Source: Candidatus Woesearchaeota archaeon (GTDB lineage Archaea; Nanobdellota; Nanobdellia; Woesearchaeales; GW2011-AR4). Taken from it: a stretch of DNA of 64,000 nt. Under the pieces are notes generated by a model. The model worked only from the letters and a program-made list of their open reading frames with translations. It made no database searches and was not told where the DNA came from. The position numbers and the translations under genes were made by a program. This document shows positions 1 through 50,181 of this stretch, piece after piece. The stretch covers positions 104,861 to 168,860 of the forward strand of contig JACPJQ010000004.1 of assembly GCA_016187465.1 (NCBI GenBank), read 5' to 3'. The stretch's first letter is position 1; each line of letters opens with the position of its first letter.

Positions 1-362
1 CTAAAAATCGTCTAATGAATGGATATTGTAAAAATATTTTTCTTTTGTGTTCTGGTAAAAAATTCAGCAAATCTTGCATAAGGCTTTTGATTTCAACTTC
101 TATTTAAGATTTACTCAAAATAAAAGTTCGTCTAAGAATTAACGATTTTACACTCAAAAAGGGGGCTTTTCTTCTCGGCTTCGCATAATCCTATGGATTA
201 TACAAACTTTTTCTACAAAAAAGTACGCCGAGAACGATTTAGGCGGGAAAAAAGAAATTGCTCACTACGTTCACAATTTGTGGAATTTAATAATTCCACT
301 GCGTATAATACTCGTTTCGTGGCAAAATCGAATTCCTTGCGTCATTCAGATTTTGACCTAAC

Positions 363-402
363 TTTTTCTCAGCTCTGAAAAATTAGCCAGCTCTGAAGTT
401 TG
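363..402. repeat. ~40-nt dispersed repeat, copy 1 (ttttctcagctctgaaaaatt[a/c]gccagctctgaagtttg); contains an internal 10-nt duplication
   Basis: 39/40 identical to 2025..2064; read directly in sequence. Confidence 0.7.
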
Positions 403-692
403 CGAGTTCAAACTTCGAGGGCAATTTTTCGAGGAGAAAAAGTTCACGAAACTTTGGGCATTATACGAACTTTTGGGGCTCTTTAGAATAATAATTTTGG
501 TTTTTTACTCGCTTTACTCATAAAAAACTTTCCAAGGGCACTTTTATAACGTTTAGATGGGCTTATTTCATAAGAATATATCATTTTTCAATGACTTTAC
601 GCATTAAACTAAAATCCAATAACGAAAAACTCAATAAACATAAAAAAAATCAAAAATCCAGCCCACCTTCCAGTCCGCCCCTCCACCCACCC

Positions 693-1163
693 TTAAATAA
701 TAAAGTAAATTACAAAATAAACAACAAGAGCGACTATTAGCATAGCTGAATATTGAAGTAGATTATCCCTTACATATTCATTTTCCCTAGTTTTTTTTGA
801 TTGTGAGTAAGTTGCAACTAGCAAGCAAGTGACCGAAATAAAGACTAAAATATGTTTTATTATGCTGGATATTAAAATCGATAAGACAAAAGTTATACTC
901 CCAATTAGCATTAAGTTACCTTCAAGGGTAAGCCAATTCTCTTCTTTCTGAGCCTTTGAAAGATTTTTTTTAATGTTATTATACCTGTAATTGAAACCTC
1001 CGATTAACAAGAGGAATGTTAATGCAATAAGAAACATTTCATATTTAATATTCCCTTGGAATTTGGCTAATAGTACTCTTGCAAAAACCCTGTACAGAAT
1101 CGCTAAGATTATTATTATCAAGATAGTTAAAAAGGAACGATTCTTCCATATGGATTTTTCCAT
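693..1163 (-). CDS. hypothetical integral membrane protein
   Basis: 156-aa ORF with several hydrophobic helices; no recognisable family. Confidence 0.35.
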   Translation of the reverse strand: MEKSIWKNRSFLTILIIIILAILYRVFARVLLAKFQGNIKYEMFLIALTFLLLIGGFNYRYNNIKKNLSKAQKEENWLTLEGNLMLIGSITFVLSILISSIIKHILVFISVTCLLVATYSQSKKTRENEYVRDNLLQYSAMLIVALVVYFVIYFII

Positions 1164-1192
1164 TTTAAACTGTAATGAATGCTTTTCTTTAA

Positions 1193-1238
1193 AAAAGTTC
1201 GCCTAAGTGACGACTATTCTTGTGCCCTTGGACTTAAG
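1193..1238. repeat. ~45-nt imperfect direct repeat (copy 1) flanking the 1241..1764 two-gene cassette
   Basis: shares ttcg[c/t]ctaa..cgact..ttgtgcccttggactta with 1815..1860. Confidence 0.6.
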
Positions 1239-1240
1239 AA

Positions 1241-1453
1241 CTAACTGACAACAACCTCGACAGGCAAGTCTTCAATTTTTGTTTTTCCAGAAATAAAATT
1301 TAGCTTCTCAAAACCAATAACTTTCTTTGTTTTTGGATCTTTTTTTAAAATAACTTCCTCTCCAGTTTCCTCACTAATGACTTTTCTTGGCTTTTCAAAC
1401 CACACATCTAAGGTGTTGCCTTCCTTGTCAAAAAATACCCTGATTTTCTTCAT
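1241..1453 (-). CDS. DUF2283-like small protein, putative antitoxin partner
   Basis: 70 aa; N-terminal M-K-x-I-x-x-F-D-x-E pattern typical of DUF2283; 4-nt overlap with upstream gene. Confidence 0.5.
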   Translation of the reverse strand: MKKIRVFFDKEGNTLDVWFEKPRKVISEETGEEVILKKDPKTKKVIGFEKLNFISGKTKIEDLPVEVVVS

Positions 1454-1764
1454 TTTCCTTTGTAAAATTGCTTCCCTTCCTTTATTCTGTCTGTAAAATA
1501 TGCTGTTATAATAAATCCATCGCCGTTTTTGTGCTTTACAACAACTGAAACCAACAATCTTCCATAATGTTTGTAATAAAGGTAAACCGAATCATCACTG
1601 ACACTTTGCCTTATTTCGTCTGGATTTGTTAATGTTTCTTTGACTTCTTTTTCTTTGCCTTCCATCTCAAGATGTTTAGTCTTGATAATTAATTCCCATC
1701 TAGATTTTGTAACATACACTCTTTTATCGAGTTTGGATGTCACCTCAAAATAGTTTTCATTCAT
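1450..1764 (-). CDS. DUF4258-like small protein, putative toxin of a DUF4258/DUF2283 pair
   Basis: 104 aa; operonic overlap with the DUF2283-like gene; weak motif resemblance only. Confidence 0.4.
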   Translation of the reverse strand: MNENYFEVTSKLDKRVYVTKSRWELIIKTKHLEMEGKEKEVKETLTNPDEIRQSVSDDSVYLYYKHYGRLLVSVVVKHKNGDGFIITAYFTDRIKEGKQFYKGK

Positions 1765-1814
1765 GTAGAATCGTATAATCTTGAGTATATAAACCTTTTT
1801 AAATTTTTGTTTAA

Positions 1815-1860
1815 AATTCGTCTAATGCCAACGACTGATATTGTGCCCTTGGACTTATTG
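1815..1860. repeat. ~45-nt imperfect direct repeat (copy 2) flanking the 1241..1764 cassette
   Basis: matches 1193..1238. Confidence 0.6.
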
Positions 1861-2024
1861 CCTTTCGTCTAATGTAAGACATTAGGCAAACTTTTTAACG
1901 AGTAAAAAGACGGCAATAAGCGAAATTATTATGAGCCCCAAAAGTTTAGAACCCTATCGGGCATCTAATACTCGTTATGCGGTTCGCTCCTTATTTCATA
2001 ATGTCGCTCAACCTAAGTTTTTTC

Positions 2025-2064
2025 TCAGCTCTGAAAAATTCGCCAGCTCTGAAGTTTGTTGGGT
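2025..2064. repeat. ~40-nt dispersed repeat, copy 2
   Basis: matches 363..402; preceded ~50 nt upstream by a second shared block (taatactcgtt), as in copy 1. Confidence 0.7.
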
Positions 2065-2126
2065 TGCCTCAAACACCGAGAAAGAACCGATATTTTTATA
2101 TATATGGGCTTCTATTATGCATTAAT

Positions 2127-2261
2127 ATGGAAACAATAACAATACCTAAGGAAGAGTATGAAAGACTAAAGAAATTAGAGCAGCTTGATTTTGATTTGAT
2201 AAGGCAATTTGCCAGTTCTCTAGAAGACTTAAAACAAGGCAGATTCAAGAGACTTGCTTAG
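2127..2261 (+). CDS. small charged protein (44 aa), possible antitoxin-like partner
   Basis: internal ATG of ORF 1977..2261; convergent with and overlapping the RelE-like gene. Confidence 0.25.
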   Translation: METITIPKEEYERLKKLEQLDFDLIRQFASSLEDLKQGRFKRLA

Positions 2262-2631
2262 CAATTTGTTCTGCAACTTTTCTGTATTCAGCAAATTGTG
2301 ATATTATGTGGTCTATCGTCGCTTGCTGATCTTTCTTGCCGCTCGTAGCAACAAGTAAAACTAACTTCAAGTCTTCGTAAATGAGATAATAAACTCTCTT
2401 TTCTTTTATGCGTTTTTCTCTCAAGAAAGGATATCTTAGCTGATGACCAACAAATGGATTTTCTGCAAGTTGCTCCGGAATTTTTTCTGTTGCTTCAATT
2501 TCTGGATTTGACCATTTGCTAATTTCTTTAAGATAAGTATCAGTTCCGATTACTTTAAACATTTTCACAATACTTCTTTGCTTCTTTATAAACTTTCTCG
2601 GTAAAAGTACGCTGAGAACGATTTTGGGCAA
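2245..2631 (-). CDS. RelE/ParE-family toxin-like protein (true start probably an internal Met near 2565)
   Basis: C-terminal region R-x-Y-Y-L-I-Y-E...L-x-L-L-V-A resembles the RelE/ParE fold signature. Confidence 0.4.
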   Translation of the reverse strand: MPKIVLSVLLPRKFIKKQRSIVKMFKVIGTDTYLKEISKWSNPEIEATEKIPEQLAENPFVGHQLRYPFLREKRIKEKRVYYLIYEDLKLVLLVATSGKKDQQATIDHIISQFAEYRKVAEQIAKQVS

Positions 2632-2634
2632 AAT

Positions 2635-2832
2635 TTACAGCCTTAAATGCTTTGTTTTCTTTTCAATTGTTTTTGTTGTTTTATATCTTCCTTCGCTTAT
2701 GCACTTAAAGCATTCTTCTTTATAATCACTGTAGAATTTGTCGCCTGCATTCCAACATTTTCTTTTACATCTAAACAAAACATAGCCGTGCTTTCCGCAC
2801 AGCATTACTCTCTTTCTCATTCTGGACACCAT
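2635..2832 (-). CDS. small Cys-rich zinc-ribbon-like protein, operonic with the RelE-like gene
   Basis: 65 aa with 6 Cys in CxxH.../CxxxC/CxxC spacing; stop 4 nt before downstream start. Confidence 0.35.
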   Translation of the reverse strand: MVSRMRKRVMLCGKHGYVLFRCKRKCWNAGDKFYSDYKEECFKCISEGRYKTTKTIEKKTKHLRL

Positions 2833-2983
2833 CCAGACCGCATAACCAAAAACTGCCTTGCTTTTGGCTATGTTGCTCTTAGAGCAGTGGTCTTAATGCG
2901 TGCCGGTTTTGTACTTTGTCGACGAAACTTTGTTTAGCATTTTAATCGTTTGATAAAAATAAGATAGTTTTAATAAAAAGATA

Positions 2984-3136
2984 TCATCGATGATACTTTG
3001 GATTCACTCCAATCGCTTTCATGTCTTCCTGGCCGCATTCATTGCACCTGTAGACATCGTATTTTGAATTTCCGCTTTGAATCACGCCTTTCTTAATCAT
3101 CTTCTCGCCGCATTTGCCGCATTTTCCGTCTTTCAT
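2984..3136 (-). CDS. small C4 zinc-ribbon protein (start trimmed to internal Met)
   Basis: CGKCGEK...CNECGQ; the long N-terminal extension of ORF 2984..3301 overlaps the DUF192 gene in another frame. Confidence 0.35.
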   Translation of the reverse strand: MKDGKCGKCGEKMIKKGVIQSGNSKYDVYRCNECGQEDMKAIGVNPKYHR

Positions 3137-3155
3137 TCTTTTTCCTGTTGCAAGC

Positions 3156-3593
3156 TTATTTATAAAGTTTTTTAATTTCAGCTTTATTTCCGACGATGAC
3201 GCTGTTTCTTGAAGTAAAATTGCCATTGACCTCAAGGACATATTTGGCCGGCCTTGCGGATTTGTGCAATGTGCAAGGGTCTTCCTTACACGGAACTGCA
3301 CTTTTTATGTCGACAATCTCCATATTTTTGCTGATAAAAATCATGTCCAAAGGAATCAAGGTGTTTTTCATCCAGAATGTCTGGTAGTTTTCTTCATCAA
3401 AAACAAAAAGCATTCCTGAATTTTCATCAAGTTTTGTCCTGAGCATCAAGCCATGCCTTCTTTCATCATTACCGTCTGCAATTTCAACTTTTACTTTGAT
3501 TAACTCTTTCCCATTATCAATCAAAATTTCATTAAAACTTTTTGAACATCCGATTAAAAAAATCAGCAAAAAACTTACAAGAATCTTGTTCAT
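3156..3593 (-). CDS. DUF192-family protein with N-terminal lipoprotein-like signal
   Basis: HGLMLR...MLFVF...FWMKNTLIPLD...YVLEVNG motifs typical of DUF192/COG1430. Confidence 0.65.
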   Translation of the reverse strand: MNKILVSFLLIFLIGCSKSFNEILIDNGKELIKVKVEIADGNDERRHGLMLRTKLDENSGMLFVFDEENYQTFWMKNTLIPLDMIFISKNMEIVDIKSAVPCKEDPCTLHKSARPAKYVLEVNGNFTSRNSVIVGNKAEIKKLYK

Positions 3594-5180: not shown

Positions 5181-5522
5181 ATGGTATACTCCCTCCAACT
5201 CAATTCCTATTTTATAAGACCCAAAAAGGGTATTTTTGATTATACAAGATATGACAAAACCTTAGATAAAGCATTAAATCCAGAAGCTGTTTTTGTTGTT
5301 ATAGAGGACACAGCGCATAGGCTGCGCGGTCACACCAGTTTAAATGAAGAGAAATATAACCCGGATAAATCACAAGTTCTTGAAGCGCCTTTTGATTCCT
5401 TAAGACAATATTTATCAAATACTAAAGGAGATAAAGTTATAGTAACTAAGGAACCGTTGGTTGAGAAAGTCGAATCTGCAATAAAACAGTTCGGTTTTGA
5501 TACAGCACGTTTTAGTATTTAA
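5181..5522 (+). CDS. hypothetical protein
   Basis: 113-aa ORF, no family recognised. Confidence 0.3.
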   Translation: MVYSLQLNSYFIRPKKGIFDYTRYDKTLDKALNPEAVFVVIEDTAHRLRGHTSLNEEKYNPDKSQVLEAPFDSLRQYLSNTKGDKVIVTKEPLVEKVESAIKQFGFDTARFSI

Positions 5523-6480: not shown

Positions 6481-6855
6481 TTATAATTCCATCGCAAAAG
6501 TGGCAATCATAAGGAAGACTCCTTCTATGATAAAGATTACATCATAAGCCTTTCTGTTCAGCCAGTTGAACTCAAACCACGCCGGCCCAATACCAAACGA
6601 GTGCAGCACTGGAAACAATCCGATAATCAGAACAGCAATCGCAACTCCAAAGCTCCACCACCCTACAATGTTGCTGTTGGTTATTTCAATTATTGAGTTA
6701 ATTGCGAGGTAAAAACCTGCTCCTGCAACTATCCATATCAAAATAGAAGGCGCCAAATCATTCAGGAAAGTAAGATAGCCCATCATCGGCAGCAGTCCCA
6801 GTAGGAATATCGCAGCTCCGACTGCTCCAGAAATCCAGTCACGCATCTGCATCAT
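6481..6855 (-). CDS. small integral membrane protein
   Basis: 124 aa, 3-4 hydrophobic helices. Confidence 0.4.
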   Translation of the reverse strand: MMQMRDWISGAVGAAIFLLGLLPMMGYLTFLNDLAPSILIWIVAGAGFYLAINSIIEITNSNIVGWWSFGVAIAVLIIGLFPVLHSFGIGPAWFEFNWLNRKAYDVIFIIEGVFLMIATFAMEL

Positions 6856-28751: not shown

Positions 28752-29525
28752 ATGGAAGCAAAGCTAGTCCGGAAATTCGGCAACAGCGGTCATGTAATCG
28801 TGCCAAAAGAATATATAGGCAAAAGAATAAAGTTTATTGCAGAGCCAAAAACCTTTGAAGATATAAAATCTGAGATATTAGTAATTCTAAAGTCGTGTCT
28901 AGAAAACATAATTGGCATTTATTTATACGGCTCTTATGCCAGAAATGAGCAGACAATAGAATCCGACATAGACATTTTGGTAATTACTGACACAAAATTA
29001 AAAATAATGGAAAAGATTTATGATTACTCTATTGTTTCTATCACAATAAATGAGCTTGAAAAGACACTAGATACTAACGCTGTTTTAATATTTCCAATAA
29101 TAAAAGAAGCTAAAATTATTATTAATCCGGAATTATTAGAAAAGTATAAGCAATACAAATTTACGAAAAAGAATACTGAAGTTTTCATTGAAGGTACTGG
29201 CAAAATTTTGGATTTAAATAAAAAAGGTCTTGAGTTGGATTTTGAGTTAGGAAGCCTTGTTTATTCCTTGATGCTGAGGATCAGGGGCTTGTTAATGATA
29301 AATCTTATACTGAGCGGTAAATTCTATTCAAAATCAGTTTTATTCGATTTTTTGGAAGGCAAAGGCTTGACAAAAGACAAAATTTTGGAGTTATATAAAA
29401 TCTATTCCTCTGAAATGGACGGGATTAAAATAAAAGAAAACAGAATTGTCACAAAAGAAGATATCAAAAAATTGCTAATTATTGCTGAAAATCTATTAAA
29501 AGAAGCGATAGGCTTGCTAAAATGA
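28752..29525 (+). CDS. AbrB/SpoVT-like swapped-hairpin domain fused to a minimal nucleotidyltransferase (MNT) domain plus uncharacterised C-terminal domain
   Basis: VRKFGNSGHVIVPKEYIGK N-terminus; GIYLYGSYARNEQTIESDIDILVITD NTase motif. Confidence 0.6.
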   Translation: MEAKLVRKFGNSGHVIVPKEYIGKRIKFIAEPKTFEDIKSEILVILKSCLENIIGIYLYGSYARNEQTIESDIDILVITDTKLKIMEKIYDYSIVSITINELEKTLDTNAVLIFPIIKEAKIIINPELLEKYKQYKFTKKNTEVFIEGTGKILDLNKKGLELDFELGSLVYSLMLRIRGLLMINLILSGKFYSKSVLFDFLEGKGLTKDKILELYKIYSSEMDGIKIKENRIVTKEDIKKLLIIAENLLKEAIGLLK

Positions 29526-43398: not shown

Positions 43399-43593
43399 TG
43401 CACCTCTCTTTTGACATATCGGAAATTTTTATATTTAATTTATTTGCAAAATGTCGGAAATCAATATTTCCGAGCACCATCGAAAATTGCAAAGCAATTT
43501 ATCGAGGATTTCCGAGTATACTCGAAAACCACTCATTAATATTATGAATTGTGGTTTTTGACATTCTACTTTTTAGAATATATTTAAACCTTT

Positions 43594-47994: not shown

Positions 47995-50181
47995 ATGCCG
48001 CCTGAATTAGACAAGCAAAAACTGTTGTCTTTGATGGAGATTTACAAGAGGCATTTAGAGAGAGAGCTGGGCGCCAAGCTTGAGCCGCAGTCTTCTGCTC
48101 CGACAACAAAGGAATACCAGGAATTCAAGGCAGAATTCCTTCCGCGGCACATGACTTTATACGAGAAATTGTGCAACCTTAGCGAAAAAATTCTCAAAAT
48201 AAAGCCCGATCAGAAAAAGGCAGAGGCTTTGCAGGAAGCAATTGACATAACCCACCTCAACATTACACCTGCAGGAGCAGTTTCATTTTCATTCTTGATT
48301 CCATTACTTGCGGCAGTATTCGGCTCATTGTTCGCTTTTCTGGTTTTCAATTCCATGTTTTTTGTTTTATTGTTTATTGTGGGCACTCTTTGCATGATAA
48401 GACCCCTCGGAAAGGCGCCTGAATTCATTGCAAACAACTGGCGCCTCAAGGCAAGCAACCAGATGGTGCTGTGCATCTTCTATACTGTCACTTATATGAG
48501 GCACACATCTAACATTGAGAATGCGCTTGAATTTGCGTCGCAGCACCTCTCCCCGCCATTATCATTAGACCTTAAAAAAGTGCTTTGGGATGTAGAAACT
48601 GAAAAATATTCTTCTGTGAAAGAGTCCCTTGACATGTATCTTGAGACATGGAAAAAATGGAATATCGAGTTTATTGAATCGTTTCACTTGATTGAAAGCT
48701 CTTTGTATGAGGGAGAAGAATCAAGAAGATTAAACGCGCTTGACAAGTCTCTTGATGTTATACTTGATGAGACATACGAAAAAATGCTGCATTACGCCCA
48801 CAACCTCCAAAACCCGATTACAATGCTCCACATGCTTGGAATCATTTTGCCAATCTTGGGGCTTGTGATACTGCCATTGGTTGTAAGCTTTATGGAAAAT
48901 GTGCGGTGGTATCATCTGGCTGTCATATATAATGTAATACTCACTGTTGTCGTTTATTACCTTGGAAAAAATATTCTTTCAAGAAGGCCGACAGGCTACG
49001 GTGACACAGATATTTCTGAGGAAAATCCTGAGCTCAAGAAATACCGCAATATACTGATAAGAATAGGAAAAAATGAATTTCAGATGACTCCCGCCATCAT
49101 AAGCGTGTTTATTGGAGTAATCTTTTTCCTGATAGGGCTGAGCCCTTTGATATTTCACGCACTTGGGATTCCTGATTTTGGATTTGGAGGAGAGGATGTG
49201 TCATCAAGCTGCGGCCAGAGATATTGCTTCCTTGAGTACAGGCTAAGCTCAACAACTAACCAGGAAATTGGACCTTATGGATTAGGGGCGGCAGTCGCAA
49301 GCCTGTTCATACCATTGAGCTTTGGAGTGGCAATAGGCTTGTATTACGGCCTAAAATCCAAGAATATTATCAAGATAAGGGAAAAGGCAAAGCAGCTTGA
49401 GTTGGAGTTTGCAAGCGCCTTATTCCAGCTTGGAAATCGCTTGGGCGACAACATACCAATAGAGATTGCTGTAGGCAAGGTGGCAAGCGTCATGGAAGGC
49501 ACTGTTTCAGGAAGCTTCTTCCAGCTGGTAAGCATGAACATAAGAAGACTAGGGATGAACATCGATAAAGCAATATTTGACCCTCAGCACGGCGCTCTTG
49601 TGTCATTTCCCAGCAACCTGATTGAAAGCTCGATGAAGGTCCTTACGCAGGCAATCAAAAAAGGGCCTTTGATTGCTGCGCAGGCATTGACGAACGTCTC
49701 AAGGTATATAAAAGAGATACATAAGGTTAATGAAAGGCTGAAGGACTTAATGGCTGATGTTATCTCGTCCATGCGATCCCAAATCAAGTTTTTAACTCCT
49801 GCCATTGCCGGAGTTGTTATTGGCATTACTTCCATGATAACTTCCATTCTTGGAAAATTAAGCGCCCAATTGCAGCAAGTCACCTCTTCTGTTGCAGGCT
49901 CGGATGCGGCAGCACCGACCGGAATCCTGGGATTGTTTGGGGATGGCATACCCACATATTATTTCCAGCTTATTGTTGGCATCTATGTTGTGCAGATCAC
50001 CTTTATCCTGACAGTGATTGCAAACGGGGTTGAAAACGGCTCTGACAAATTAAGCGAAAGGTATCTGCTGGGCACAAACTTGATAAGGAGCACGATAATT
50101 TATGTTTTCATATCAGGAGCGGTTATGCTGATGTTCAACATAATCGCGGGAAGAATTCTAACTGCTACACTAAGCGCTTGA
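47995..50181 (+). CDS. FlaJ/TadC-like polytopic membrane platform protein
   Basis: 728 aa, multiple TM bundles separated by cytoplasmic domains, adjacent to the FlaI-like ATPase. Confidence 0.65.
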   Translation: MPPELDKQKLLSLMEIYKRHLERELGAKLEPQSSAPTTKEYQEFKAEFLPRHMTLYEKLCNLSEKILKIKPDQKKAEALQEAIDITHLNITPAGAVSFSFLIPLLAAVFGSLFAFLVFNSMFFVLLFIVGTLCMIRPLGKAPEFIANNWRLKASNQMVLCIFYTVTYMRHTSNIENALEFASQHLSPPLSLDLKKVLWDVETEKYSSVKESLDMYLETWKKWNIEFIESFHLIESSLYEGEESRRLNALDKSLDVILDETYEKMLHYAHNLQNPITMLHMLGIILPILGLVILPLVVSFMENVRWYHLAVIYNVILTVVVYYLGKNILSRRPTGYGDTDISEENPELKKYRNILIRIGKNEFQMTPAIISVFIGVIFFLIGLSPLIFHALGIPDFGFGGEDVSSSCGQRYCFLEYRLSSTTNQEIGPYGLGAAVASLFIPLSFGVAIGLYYGLKSKNIIKIREKAKQLELEFASALFQLGNRLGDNIPIEIAVGKVASVMEGTVSGSFFQLVSMNIRRLGMNIDKAIFDPQHGALVSFPSNLIESSMKVLTQAIKKGPLIAAQALTNVSRYIKEIHKVNERLKDLMADVISSMRSQIKFLTPAIAGVVIGITSMITSILGKLSAQLQQVTSSVAGSDAAAPTGILGLFGDGIPTYYFQLIVGIYVVQITFILTVIANGVENGSDKLSERYLLGTNLIRSTIIYVFISGAVMLMFNIIAGRILTATLSA

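Follow-up and report, generated by a model that had tools for sequence, protein, structure and literature searches.

A repeat-rich segment of a Woesearchaeota contig appears to combine two toxin-antitoxin modules with copies of their non-coding ends

Bases 1–2700 of a 64-kb stretch of a Candidatus Woesearchaeota archaeon contig (JACPJQ010000004.1, positions 104,861 to 168,860 of the forward strand) carry three families of dispersed repeats, (a), (b) and (c), set among two small putative toxin-antitoxin (TA) modules. We refer to the whole stretch of 64,000 nucleotides as the window, and all locations and counts refer to it; the related contigs and loci with which it was compared are numbered L012 to L231. 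The explanation that we favor, with roughly even confidence, is that TA modules have been shuffled here by recombination and that the repeats are copies of module ends, left by duplication, insertion, partial deletion and inversion. The genomes of DPANN archaea are tiny, and little is understood of how they gain and lose accessory genes.

An earlier note on this DNA, made from the sequence alone, described three repeat families, and all three are present, above chance and confined to 1–2700, the remaining 61 kb holding nothing similar. The core 17-mer of family (a), TTGTGCCCTTGGACTTA, has two exact occurrences in 64 kb (1220–1236 and 1841–1857; 0.18 expected), and gapped alignment lengthens the pair to 1166–1236 versus 1790–1857 at 74%. 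The short partial copies of (a) that had been reported are also real, as TWRGRCGAANTTTT has five window matches at no more than one mismatch, all inside 122–1895 (1.6 expected). The family (b) pair is 94% identical over 48 nt (356–402 versus 2011–2058), and the whole unit aligns from 297–449 with 1957–2095, including the taatactcgtt block, which lies upstream of both copies as described (306–316 and 1966–1976); the pair itself stands, with the second copy moved from 2025..2064, which is 6 nt too high, to 2019–2058 for the 40-mer. Family (c) has exactly two matches, at 219–240 and 2603–2624 (0 expected), in an alignment that extends to 185–243 versus 2570–2627. The first 4 kb have the lowest GC of the window (0.33). 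Three further features had been missed: an inverted pair (468–531 versus 1946–1888, 74%, E 8e-5), an inverted (a) core at 532–541, and a hairpin at the first (b) unit (b1). Coordinates of all features are collected in Table 1.

Table 1. Features of the repeat segment and the gene next to it.
Feature	Position	Strand	Description
Lone block-2 motifs of (a)	2..135	-	TAAAAATCGTCTAATG at 2–17; TTAGACGAACTTTT at 122–135
(c) copy 1 (c1)	185..253	-	apparent orphan copy of the RelE-module promoter-upstream element
(b) unit 1 (b1)	297..449	+	48-nt core 356–402; left arm of an 85-nt hairpin
Left inverted repeat	468..575	+	X (468–531) plus inverted (a) core W3 (532–541, to ~575)
Conserved non-coding tail	573..701	-	G-rich tract GGGTGGGTGGAGGGGCGGACTGGAAGGTGGGCTGG, then TTATTGAGTTTTTCGTTATTGGATTTTAG
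Slot occupant	693..1163	-	predicted membrane protein, 156 aa, orphan
(a) copy W1	1188..1238	-	directly after DUF2283 stop; block 1 AAGTCCAAGGGCACAA, block 2 CTTAGGCGAACTTTTTT; nhmmer E 5e-11
DUF2283 protein	1241..1453	-	70 aa, presumed antitoxin; Pfam 23.5 bits versus cut-off 23
DUF4258/PBECR2-like protein	1450..1764	-	104 aa, putative toxin; Pfam PBECR2 1.2e-4, DUF4258 2.2e-4
(a) copy W2	1811..1861	-	upstream of DUF4258-like start, left edge of module 1; nhmmer E 2e-12
Palindrome	1862..1895		two inverted block-2 motifs, TTCGTCTAATG-taaga-CATTAGGCAAA; hairpin in DNA fold
Right copy of inverted repeat X	1888..1946	-	
(b) unit 2 (b2)	1957..2095	+	core 2011–2058; upstream of the 44-aa gene's promoter
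44-aa partner open reading frame	2127..2261	+	convergent with the RelE-like gene; 17-nt 3' overlap
RelE/HigB/ParE-fold protein	2245..2562	-	105 aa, putative toxin
(c) copy 2 (c2)	2570..2628	-	AAATCGTTCTCAGCGTACTTTT, then ACCGAGAAAG and TTTATAAAG; 24 nt upstream of the RelE-like ATG
Cys-rich open reading frame	2635–2832	-	65 aa

All coding genes in 693–2832 are on the minus strand except for one small open reading frame (ORF). Module 2 (2628 to 2089) appears to consist of a promoter-upstream element, which is family (c), a RelE-fold toxin and its convergent 44-aa partner. DNA homology to it in 14 related contigs (L216–L229, 85–88%) spans window 2130–2628 or 2089–2608 and takes in c2. This copy is thus the stretch just upstream of the RelE-like gene's promoter, conserved across the 14 contigs, and not the boundary site that it had been taken for; ACCGAGAAAG-TTTATAAAG is read as a BRE/TATA-like promoter core, from position and consensus. 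The RelE-fold gene is accompanied by a convergent ORF of 44 or 45 aa with a 17-nt overlap in 14 of the 14 contigs, and the 44-aa protein is 93–98% identical across them. The module sits in two different contexts, a PIN/MazE TA island (L216–L223) and the interval between an H+-pyrophosphatase gene and Rpr2 (L224–L229). The 105-aa protein itself has 412 homologues (66–93% identity), nearly all of them 105 aa long.

The earlier call of a RelE-like gene holds at the level of the fold. The AlphaFold2 model of the 105-aa protein (pLDDT 90.3) matches RelE-type structures, and the BECR (RelE-type) fold is thus confirmed: the best Foldseek match in the PDB is E. coli RelE (4fxe_E, E 1.9e-5, TM 0.82, rmsd 1.8), and all 27 PDB matches at E ≤ 1e-3, among them HigB2, M. 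tuberculosis RelE and an archaeal RelE, are RelE, HigB, ParE or related toxins. Pfam ParE_toxin stays under its curated threshold (E 0.04, 14.9 bits versus a cut-off of 23), and a profile search of PDB sequences gave nothing relevant. The pair is presumed to be a toxin and its antitoxin from the predicted fold and the conserved linkage. The Cys-rich ORF, which had been counted as the third member of a TA-like trio, is not linked to the module in relatives, so that the trio is a pair.

Copies of (c) also occur away from a toxin gene. A profile of the relatives' RelE modules recovers c1 (253–201, E 7e-4) with no significant coding remnant downstream of it, and c1 is therefore taken to be an orphan copy of the promoter. 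A decayed RelE gene behind c1 was rejected, as the sole candidate match has an E-value of 0.19, and a decayed RelE-like pseudogene at 374–511 was also dropped (tblastn E 0.074; nothing in Pfam even with the frameshift repaired). We note that L231 carries at 3406–3432 a 28-nt match (89%, E 0.012) to TTTTACCGnnAAnTTTATAAAGAAGCA, the TATA-proximal part of c2; this match comes straight after the G-rich tail of module 1, is followed by no RelE gene, and looks like another orphan promoter fragment. In L216 and L218 there is an extra copy of module 2, diverged and truncated, with a 574-nt period and intergenic repeats of 60–115 nt, that is absent in L217 and L219, and it appears to be the same pattern of duplication and decay, seen independently in a relative. 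The PIN/MazE/RelE island of L216 also has its own three-copy intergenic repeat of 60–97 nt (3091–3150, 5309–5405 and 6553–6649), which by eye contains a short inverted repeat capable of forming a hairpin. Homology of these repeats to family (b) was rejected, the alignment score being equaled by 128 of 500 shuffles.

Module 1 (about 1893 to 573, minus strand) appears to be organized as an (a) element, a DUF4258/PBECR2 toxin, a DUF2283 gene, a second (a) element, a variable slot and a conserved G-rich tail. Among the gene calls of the earlier note, DUF2283 stands above the Pfam threshold, and DUF4258 and PBECR2 fall below their curated cut-offs (21.9 bits versus 25, and 22.8 versus 27.1) but are mutually consistent; PMC11980606 lists DUF4258 among the BECR-fold type II toxin families. 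Of the 80 loci recovered, most have the toxin gene immediately upstream of DUF2283. The DUF2283 protein is identical or 99% identical in L012–L015, L136 and L137, whereas synonymous third positions are only 63–71% identical, and proteins of Acidobacteria metagenome-assembled genomes (L139–L141) are 81–83% identical to it. Non-coding homology to module 1 is found in a few Woesearchaeota-type contigs only. PAC2 and DUF192 genes lie near the segment, and the best relatives are all labeled Woesearchaeota or Nanoarchaeota, in keeping with a DPANN archaeon as the source.

The contents of module 1 differ among these relatives, and the description of the segment as a mosaic of small accessory cassettes is borne out in this respect. 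The slot between DUF2283 and the tail is empty in L137, holds a membrane protein gene in the window (156 aa) and in L231 (120 aa), and in L013, L136 and L230 is taken up by unrelated orphan genes (181, 250 and 66 aa) that lie on the opposite strand; the 156-aa protein has two homologues only among 5.8 billion protein clusters. The toxin also varies, with the 104-aa DUF4258 protein in the window and a 96-aa DUF4258-like protein together with a Zn-ribbon protein in L137, L013 and L230, and in L136 the toxin gene is deleted. L231 shares 85% identity with window 644–1807, including the membrane protein gene. The neighborhoods of the DUF4258/DUF2283 genes, for which the earlier note had proposed a comparison of presence and absence, differ in L012, L013, L136, L137, L143, L230 and L231: the module adjoins ribonucleotide reductase in L137, Nop5/fibrillarin in L230, RNase HII and LeuA in L231 and other genes in L136, L013 and L012, and no further synteny with the window was found, the outside genes differing in every case.

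The G-rich tail is present in L013, L136, L143 and L230, with its second part only in L137. It is 86–91% identical in relatives, versus 63–71% at synonymous sites, and has no significant fold by DNA or RNA folding. Judged by sequence, the tract GGGTGGGTGGAGGGGCGGACTGGAAGGTGGGCTGG could form a G-quadruplex, and the tail of L013 carries a 35-nt palindromic insertion.

The (a) copies immediately flank the DUF4258/DUF2283-like pair, as had been noted, one lying 3 nt past the stop codon of DUF2283 and the other 48 nt short of the start of the DUF4258-like gene. Family (a) appears to be an element of two blocks, about 50 nt long and optional, at the junctions of module 1, where it is full, shortened or absent among relatives. 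L137, L136 and L230 have an equivalent of W2 immediately before the toxin gene, and in L013 an (a) element lies directly after the DUF2283 stop codon, whereas L012, L136, L143, L230 and L231 have only block 2 (TTrGrCGAAnTTTTT) after that stop. Since L231 has block 2 only, block 1 and the spacer of W1 form a clean 34-nt indel; homology to L231 ends at 1807, 5 nt short of W2. In the alignment of relatives the blocks CCAAnGGCAyAA and ATTrGryGAA are invariant or nearly so. Block 2 corresponds to the short motif TTAGRCGAAYTTTT, with five window matches at no more than one mismatch in the range 122–1895. It was rejected as a general promoter motif of the genome, as RCGAAYTTTT occurs five times in the window, four of them within the first 2.1 kb. 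Searched with an nhmmer profile of (a), about 0.7 Mb of related loci yielded no additional copy, and scans of public collections with a 14-base (a) pattern gave chance matches only.

The inverted pair is followed by the inverted (a) core W3 (CCAAGGGCAC), and 468–575 corresponds to the reverse complement of about 1812–1946 minus the 35-nt palindrome; it is thus taken to be an inverted, shortened copy of that region. This left inverted repeat was not found in any relative. The (b) units form direct repeats that flank module 1, 65 and 64 nt outside the inverted repeats, and (b) appears to be a lineage-specific unit of two copies: it has no match in viral, genome or metagenome collections, and its nhmmer profile found none in the same 0.7 Mb.

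Repeats, module boundaries, differing neighborhoods and presence/absence differences are thus all observed. On the explanation by recombination, bases 1–2700 would be the edge of a TA-rich accessory patch in a DPANN (Woesearchaeota-like) chromosome, assembled from two small modules that occur in other neighborhoods of related genomes. The repeat families would be the non-coding ends of the modules, copied as these duplicated, inserted, and were partly deleted or inverted, so that c1 would be an orphan copy of the module-2 promoter, and X/W3 a part of module 1's left end, copied in inverted orientation. We infer that the modules would be shuffled as their shared ends recombine, homologously or illegitimately, and that promoter or terminator signals would lie in (c) and in block 2 of (a).

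Several observations weigh against this account, and the first concerns the b1 hairpin. Bases 360–444 form an imperfect hairpin of 85 nt with a DNA fold of -21.2 kcal/mol (z -4.7 and -6.0; as RNA, z -4.1 and -5.5), which ranks second in stability among 4,261 90-nt windows in spite of a GC content of 40%. Its tandem CAGCTCTGAA motif pairs twice with TTCGAGG, with identical bulges each time. The hairpin is highly significant, and the two identically bulged modules look selected in the predicted structure, which the shuffling of module ends leaves unexplained, as it does the invariant (a) blocks and the strongly conserved G-rich tail. The (a) blocks, together with tail identity above the synonymous level, seem to point to a sequence-specific function beyond hitch-hiking. 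No recombination event and no empty (b) site was observed, and (b) has no relative in the collections searched, which is why no empty site was found. The number of informative related loci is also small (about eight). Sequencing runs SRR12113385 to SRR12113433 include this organism, and its Logan contigs break off shortly after the (b) cores, at window 408, 427 and 2075; these ends may mark structural variants or just low coverage.

Unlikely, though deserving of weight, is that the repeats are site-specific recombination sites of a non-canonical cassette system, with (b) and/or (a) as att sites or analogues of attC and the recombinase encoded elsewhere. Module 1 (about 403–2010) would then be a cassette integrated at (b), leaving attL and attR. 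The arrangement of (b) is in keeping with this, as the direct repeats expected of Campbell-type insertion flank a 1.65-kb insert, and the 48-nt core is conserved while the arms have diverged, as for an att core; the slot beside DUF2283 likewise has conserved sequence on both sides while its gene changes, and ATTRGRCGAA (block 2) is found on both sides of the TA genes in the window, L136 and L230. However, no Phage_integrase or transposase family is present among the 30 window ORFs scanned, in agreement with the earlier note, and neither (a) nor (b) has further copies in related loci. The palindrome at 1862–1895 was considered as a tyrosine-recombinase core (10-7-10) and rejected, not being conserved in L137 or L230.

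The same question was put to the hairpin. An attC site has boxes in the order R''-L''...L'-R', forms an imperfect palindrome of 55–140 nt with extrahelical bases, and ends in RYYYAAC ... GTTRRRY. The b1 palindrome is of suitable size (85–92 nt) and is bulged on one arm (z -4.7 to -6.0), unlike b2 and (a): b2 has the left arm only, and with its right arm degenerate there is no significant hairpin (z -0.66), and b2 and both (a) copies have z-scores from -0.7 to +0.6. At the ends, b1 reads ACCTAAC ... GTTCACG, in which GTT is all of R' that fits; b2 has ACCTAAG and no GTT, so that the AAC/GTT ends are not conserved there, and the (a) copies read ATTAGAC or CTTAGGC without a paired inverse core. 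The invariant AACAA and the L-box of attC are lacking in b1.

Archaeal integrons are known, mostly without an adjacent integrase and rich in TA cassettes, and clusters of attC sites that lack an integrase are termed CALINs (PMC9668308); DUF2283 and DUF4258 are among the published archaeal integron cassette proteins (Ghaly et al. 2022, PMC9668308). A covariance model, R1, was built from the seven attC sites tested in the recombination assays of PMC9668308, and as a positive control it recovers four attC sites around DUF4258/DUF2283 genes in a Dehalococcoidia genome (L205), where a pair homologous to that of the window sits inside a true attC array, as well as single sites in L189 and L195. With filters off, R1 gives no match in 1–2700, its best in the whole window being 13 bits (E 0.78) at 43526–43557, and no attC was found in the Woesearchaeota relatives. 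Canonical attC sites were rejected on this test, and we do not assign the segment to the integrons, because R1 has no match, the ends and boxes of b1 do not fit, (a) is unfolded and the 30 ORFs include no integrase. The earlier reading thus stands in part, for its accessory mosaic and not for its recombination-site-like repeats, none of which behaves as an integron attC or was shown to be a substrate of site-specific recombination.

We think it also improbable that the repeats are purely regulatory duplicates, that is, operators, promoters or terminators kept for co-regulation with no role in mobility. The position of c2 is in keeping with this, as are the presence of ACCGAGAAAG before the TATA-like boxes of both convergent genes, the location of (a) 45–95 nt upstream of a TA start codon in four genomes, the T-run in which block 2 ends directly after the DUF2283 stop in seven loci, and the tandem CAGCTCTGAA motif within (b). 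But no gene follows c1; in L013 and L136 the next gene has its 3' end toward the element that follows DUF2283; (a) is dispensable in L231 and L012; and neither the inverted X/W3 copy nor the direct (b) copies are placed consistently with respect to genes.

A cassette-exchange system of the Woesearchaeota, distinct from integrons, would have orphan genes swapped between (a)/block 2 and the G-rich tail, with the (b) hairpin analogous to attC but unrelated to it; this strikes us as quite doubtful. Very improbable is a non-autonomous transposon of the mobile-insertion-cassette or miniature inverted-repeat transposable element (MITE) kind at 468–1946, as the inverted repeats of about 110–135 nt (468–575 and 1812–1946) do bracket three passenger genes, with the direct (b) repeats outside, but the arms are merely 74% identical, the left arm is missing from every relative with the module (L137, L230 and L231 having the module without an inverted end), the outer edges lack a short target-site duplication, no transposase is found among the 30 ORFs, and neither the window nor the related loci contain another copy.

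Elsewhere in the window, the only Rfam hit is a tRNA-Val at 12.8 kb, low-threshold matches in 1–3200 being far under gathering scores. The intergenic region upstream of the Cys-rich ORF (2821–2910) has a fold of -31.3 kcal/mol, seventh of the 4,261 windows, and a weak, sub-threshold RsmY-like Rfam match (E 0.42), and may be a small RNA. At 49276–49365, inside a long ORF (47995–50181), lies the 90-nt fold that is the most stable of the window (-34.7 kcal/mol). Far from the repeat segment, ORF 28752–29525 has a Pol-beta-type nucleotidyltransferase domain and a DUF2080 ('putative transposon-encoded') segment, and may be another TA-like gene.

The locus is a concrete example, open to comparison, of two TA modules with recognizable non-coding ends that recur in different neighborhoods, in which the slot beside an extremely conserved DUF2283 gene changes its occupant between relatives. 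If the conserved ends are recombination substrates, they would offer a second route of cassette capture in Archaea besides integrons; if not, the segment would illustrate ordinary duplication and decay in a TA island.

Among known systems, mobile insertion cassettes and MITEs share with the segment the inverted ends around passenger genes and the lack of a transposase within, but here the ends are long, 74% identical and specific to the window, with neither target-site duplication nor further copies. Archaeal integron arrays and CALINs resemble it in their small, mostly same-strand, TA-rich accessory genes parted by repeated non-coding elements, in their DUF2283/DUF4258 cassette proteins with no integrase nearby (as in a CALIN), and in having a long imperfect hairpin with bulged bases, as at b1; the segment differs from them in giving no R1 match, in lacking AACAA and the L-box, in its unfolded (a) elements and in having only one convincing hairpin.

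Type II TA pairs are normally co-transcribed. Module 2 is like RelBE, HigBA and ParDE in the RelE/HigB/ParE fold of its 105-aa protein and in its small, tightly linked and conserved partner, but it is unlike them in that the partner is convergent, with the 17-nt 3' overlap, and not co-transcribed, and in its sub-threshold Pfam match. In the type II TA islands with segmental duplication and decay, such as the PIN/MazE/RelE islands of L216–L218, no second, unrelated module with conserved ends of its own lies between the copies, bracketed by inverted repeats, as it does here; these islands and the segment have in common tandem or dispersed copies of module ends, truncated modules, and presence/absence differences between close relatives.

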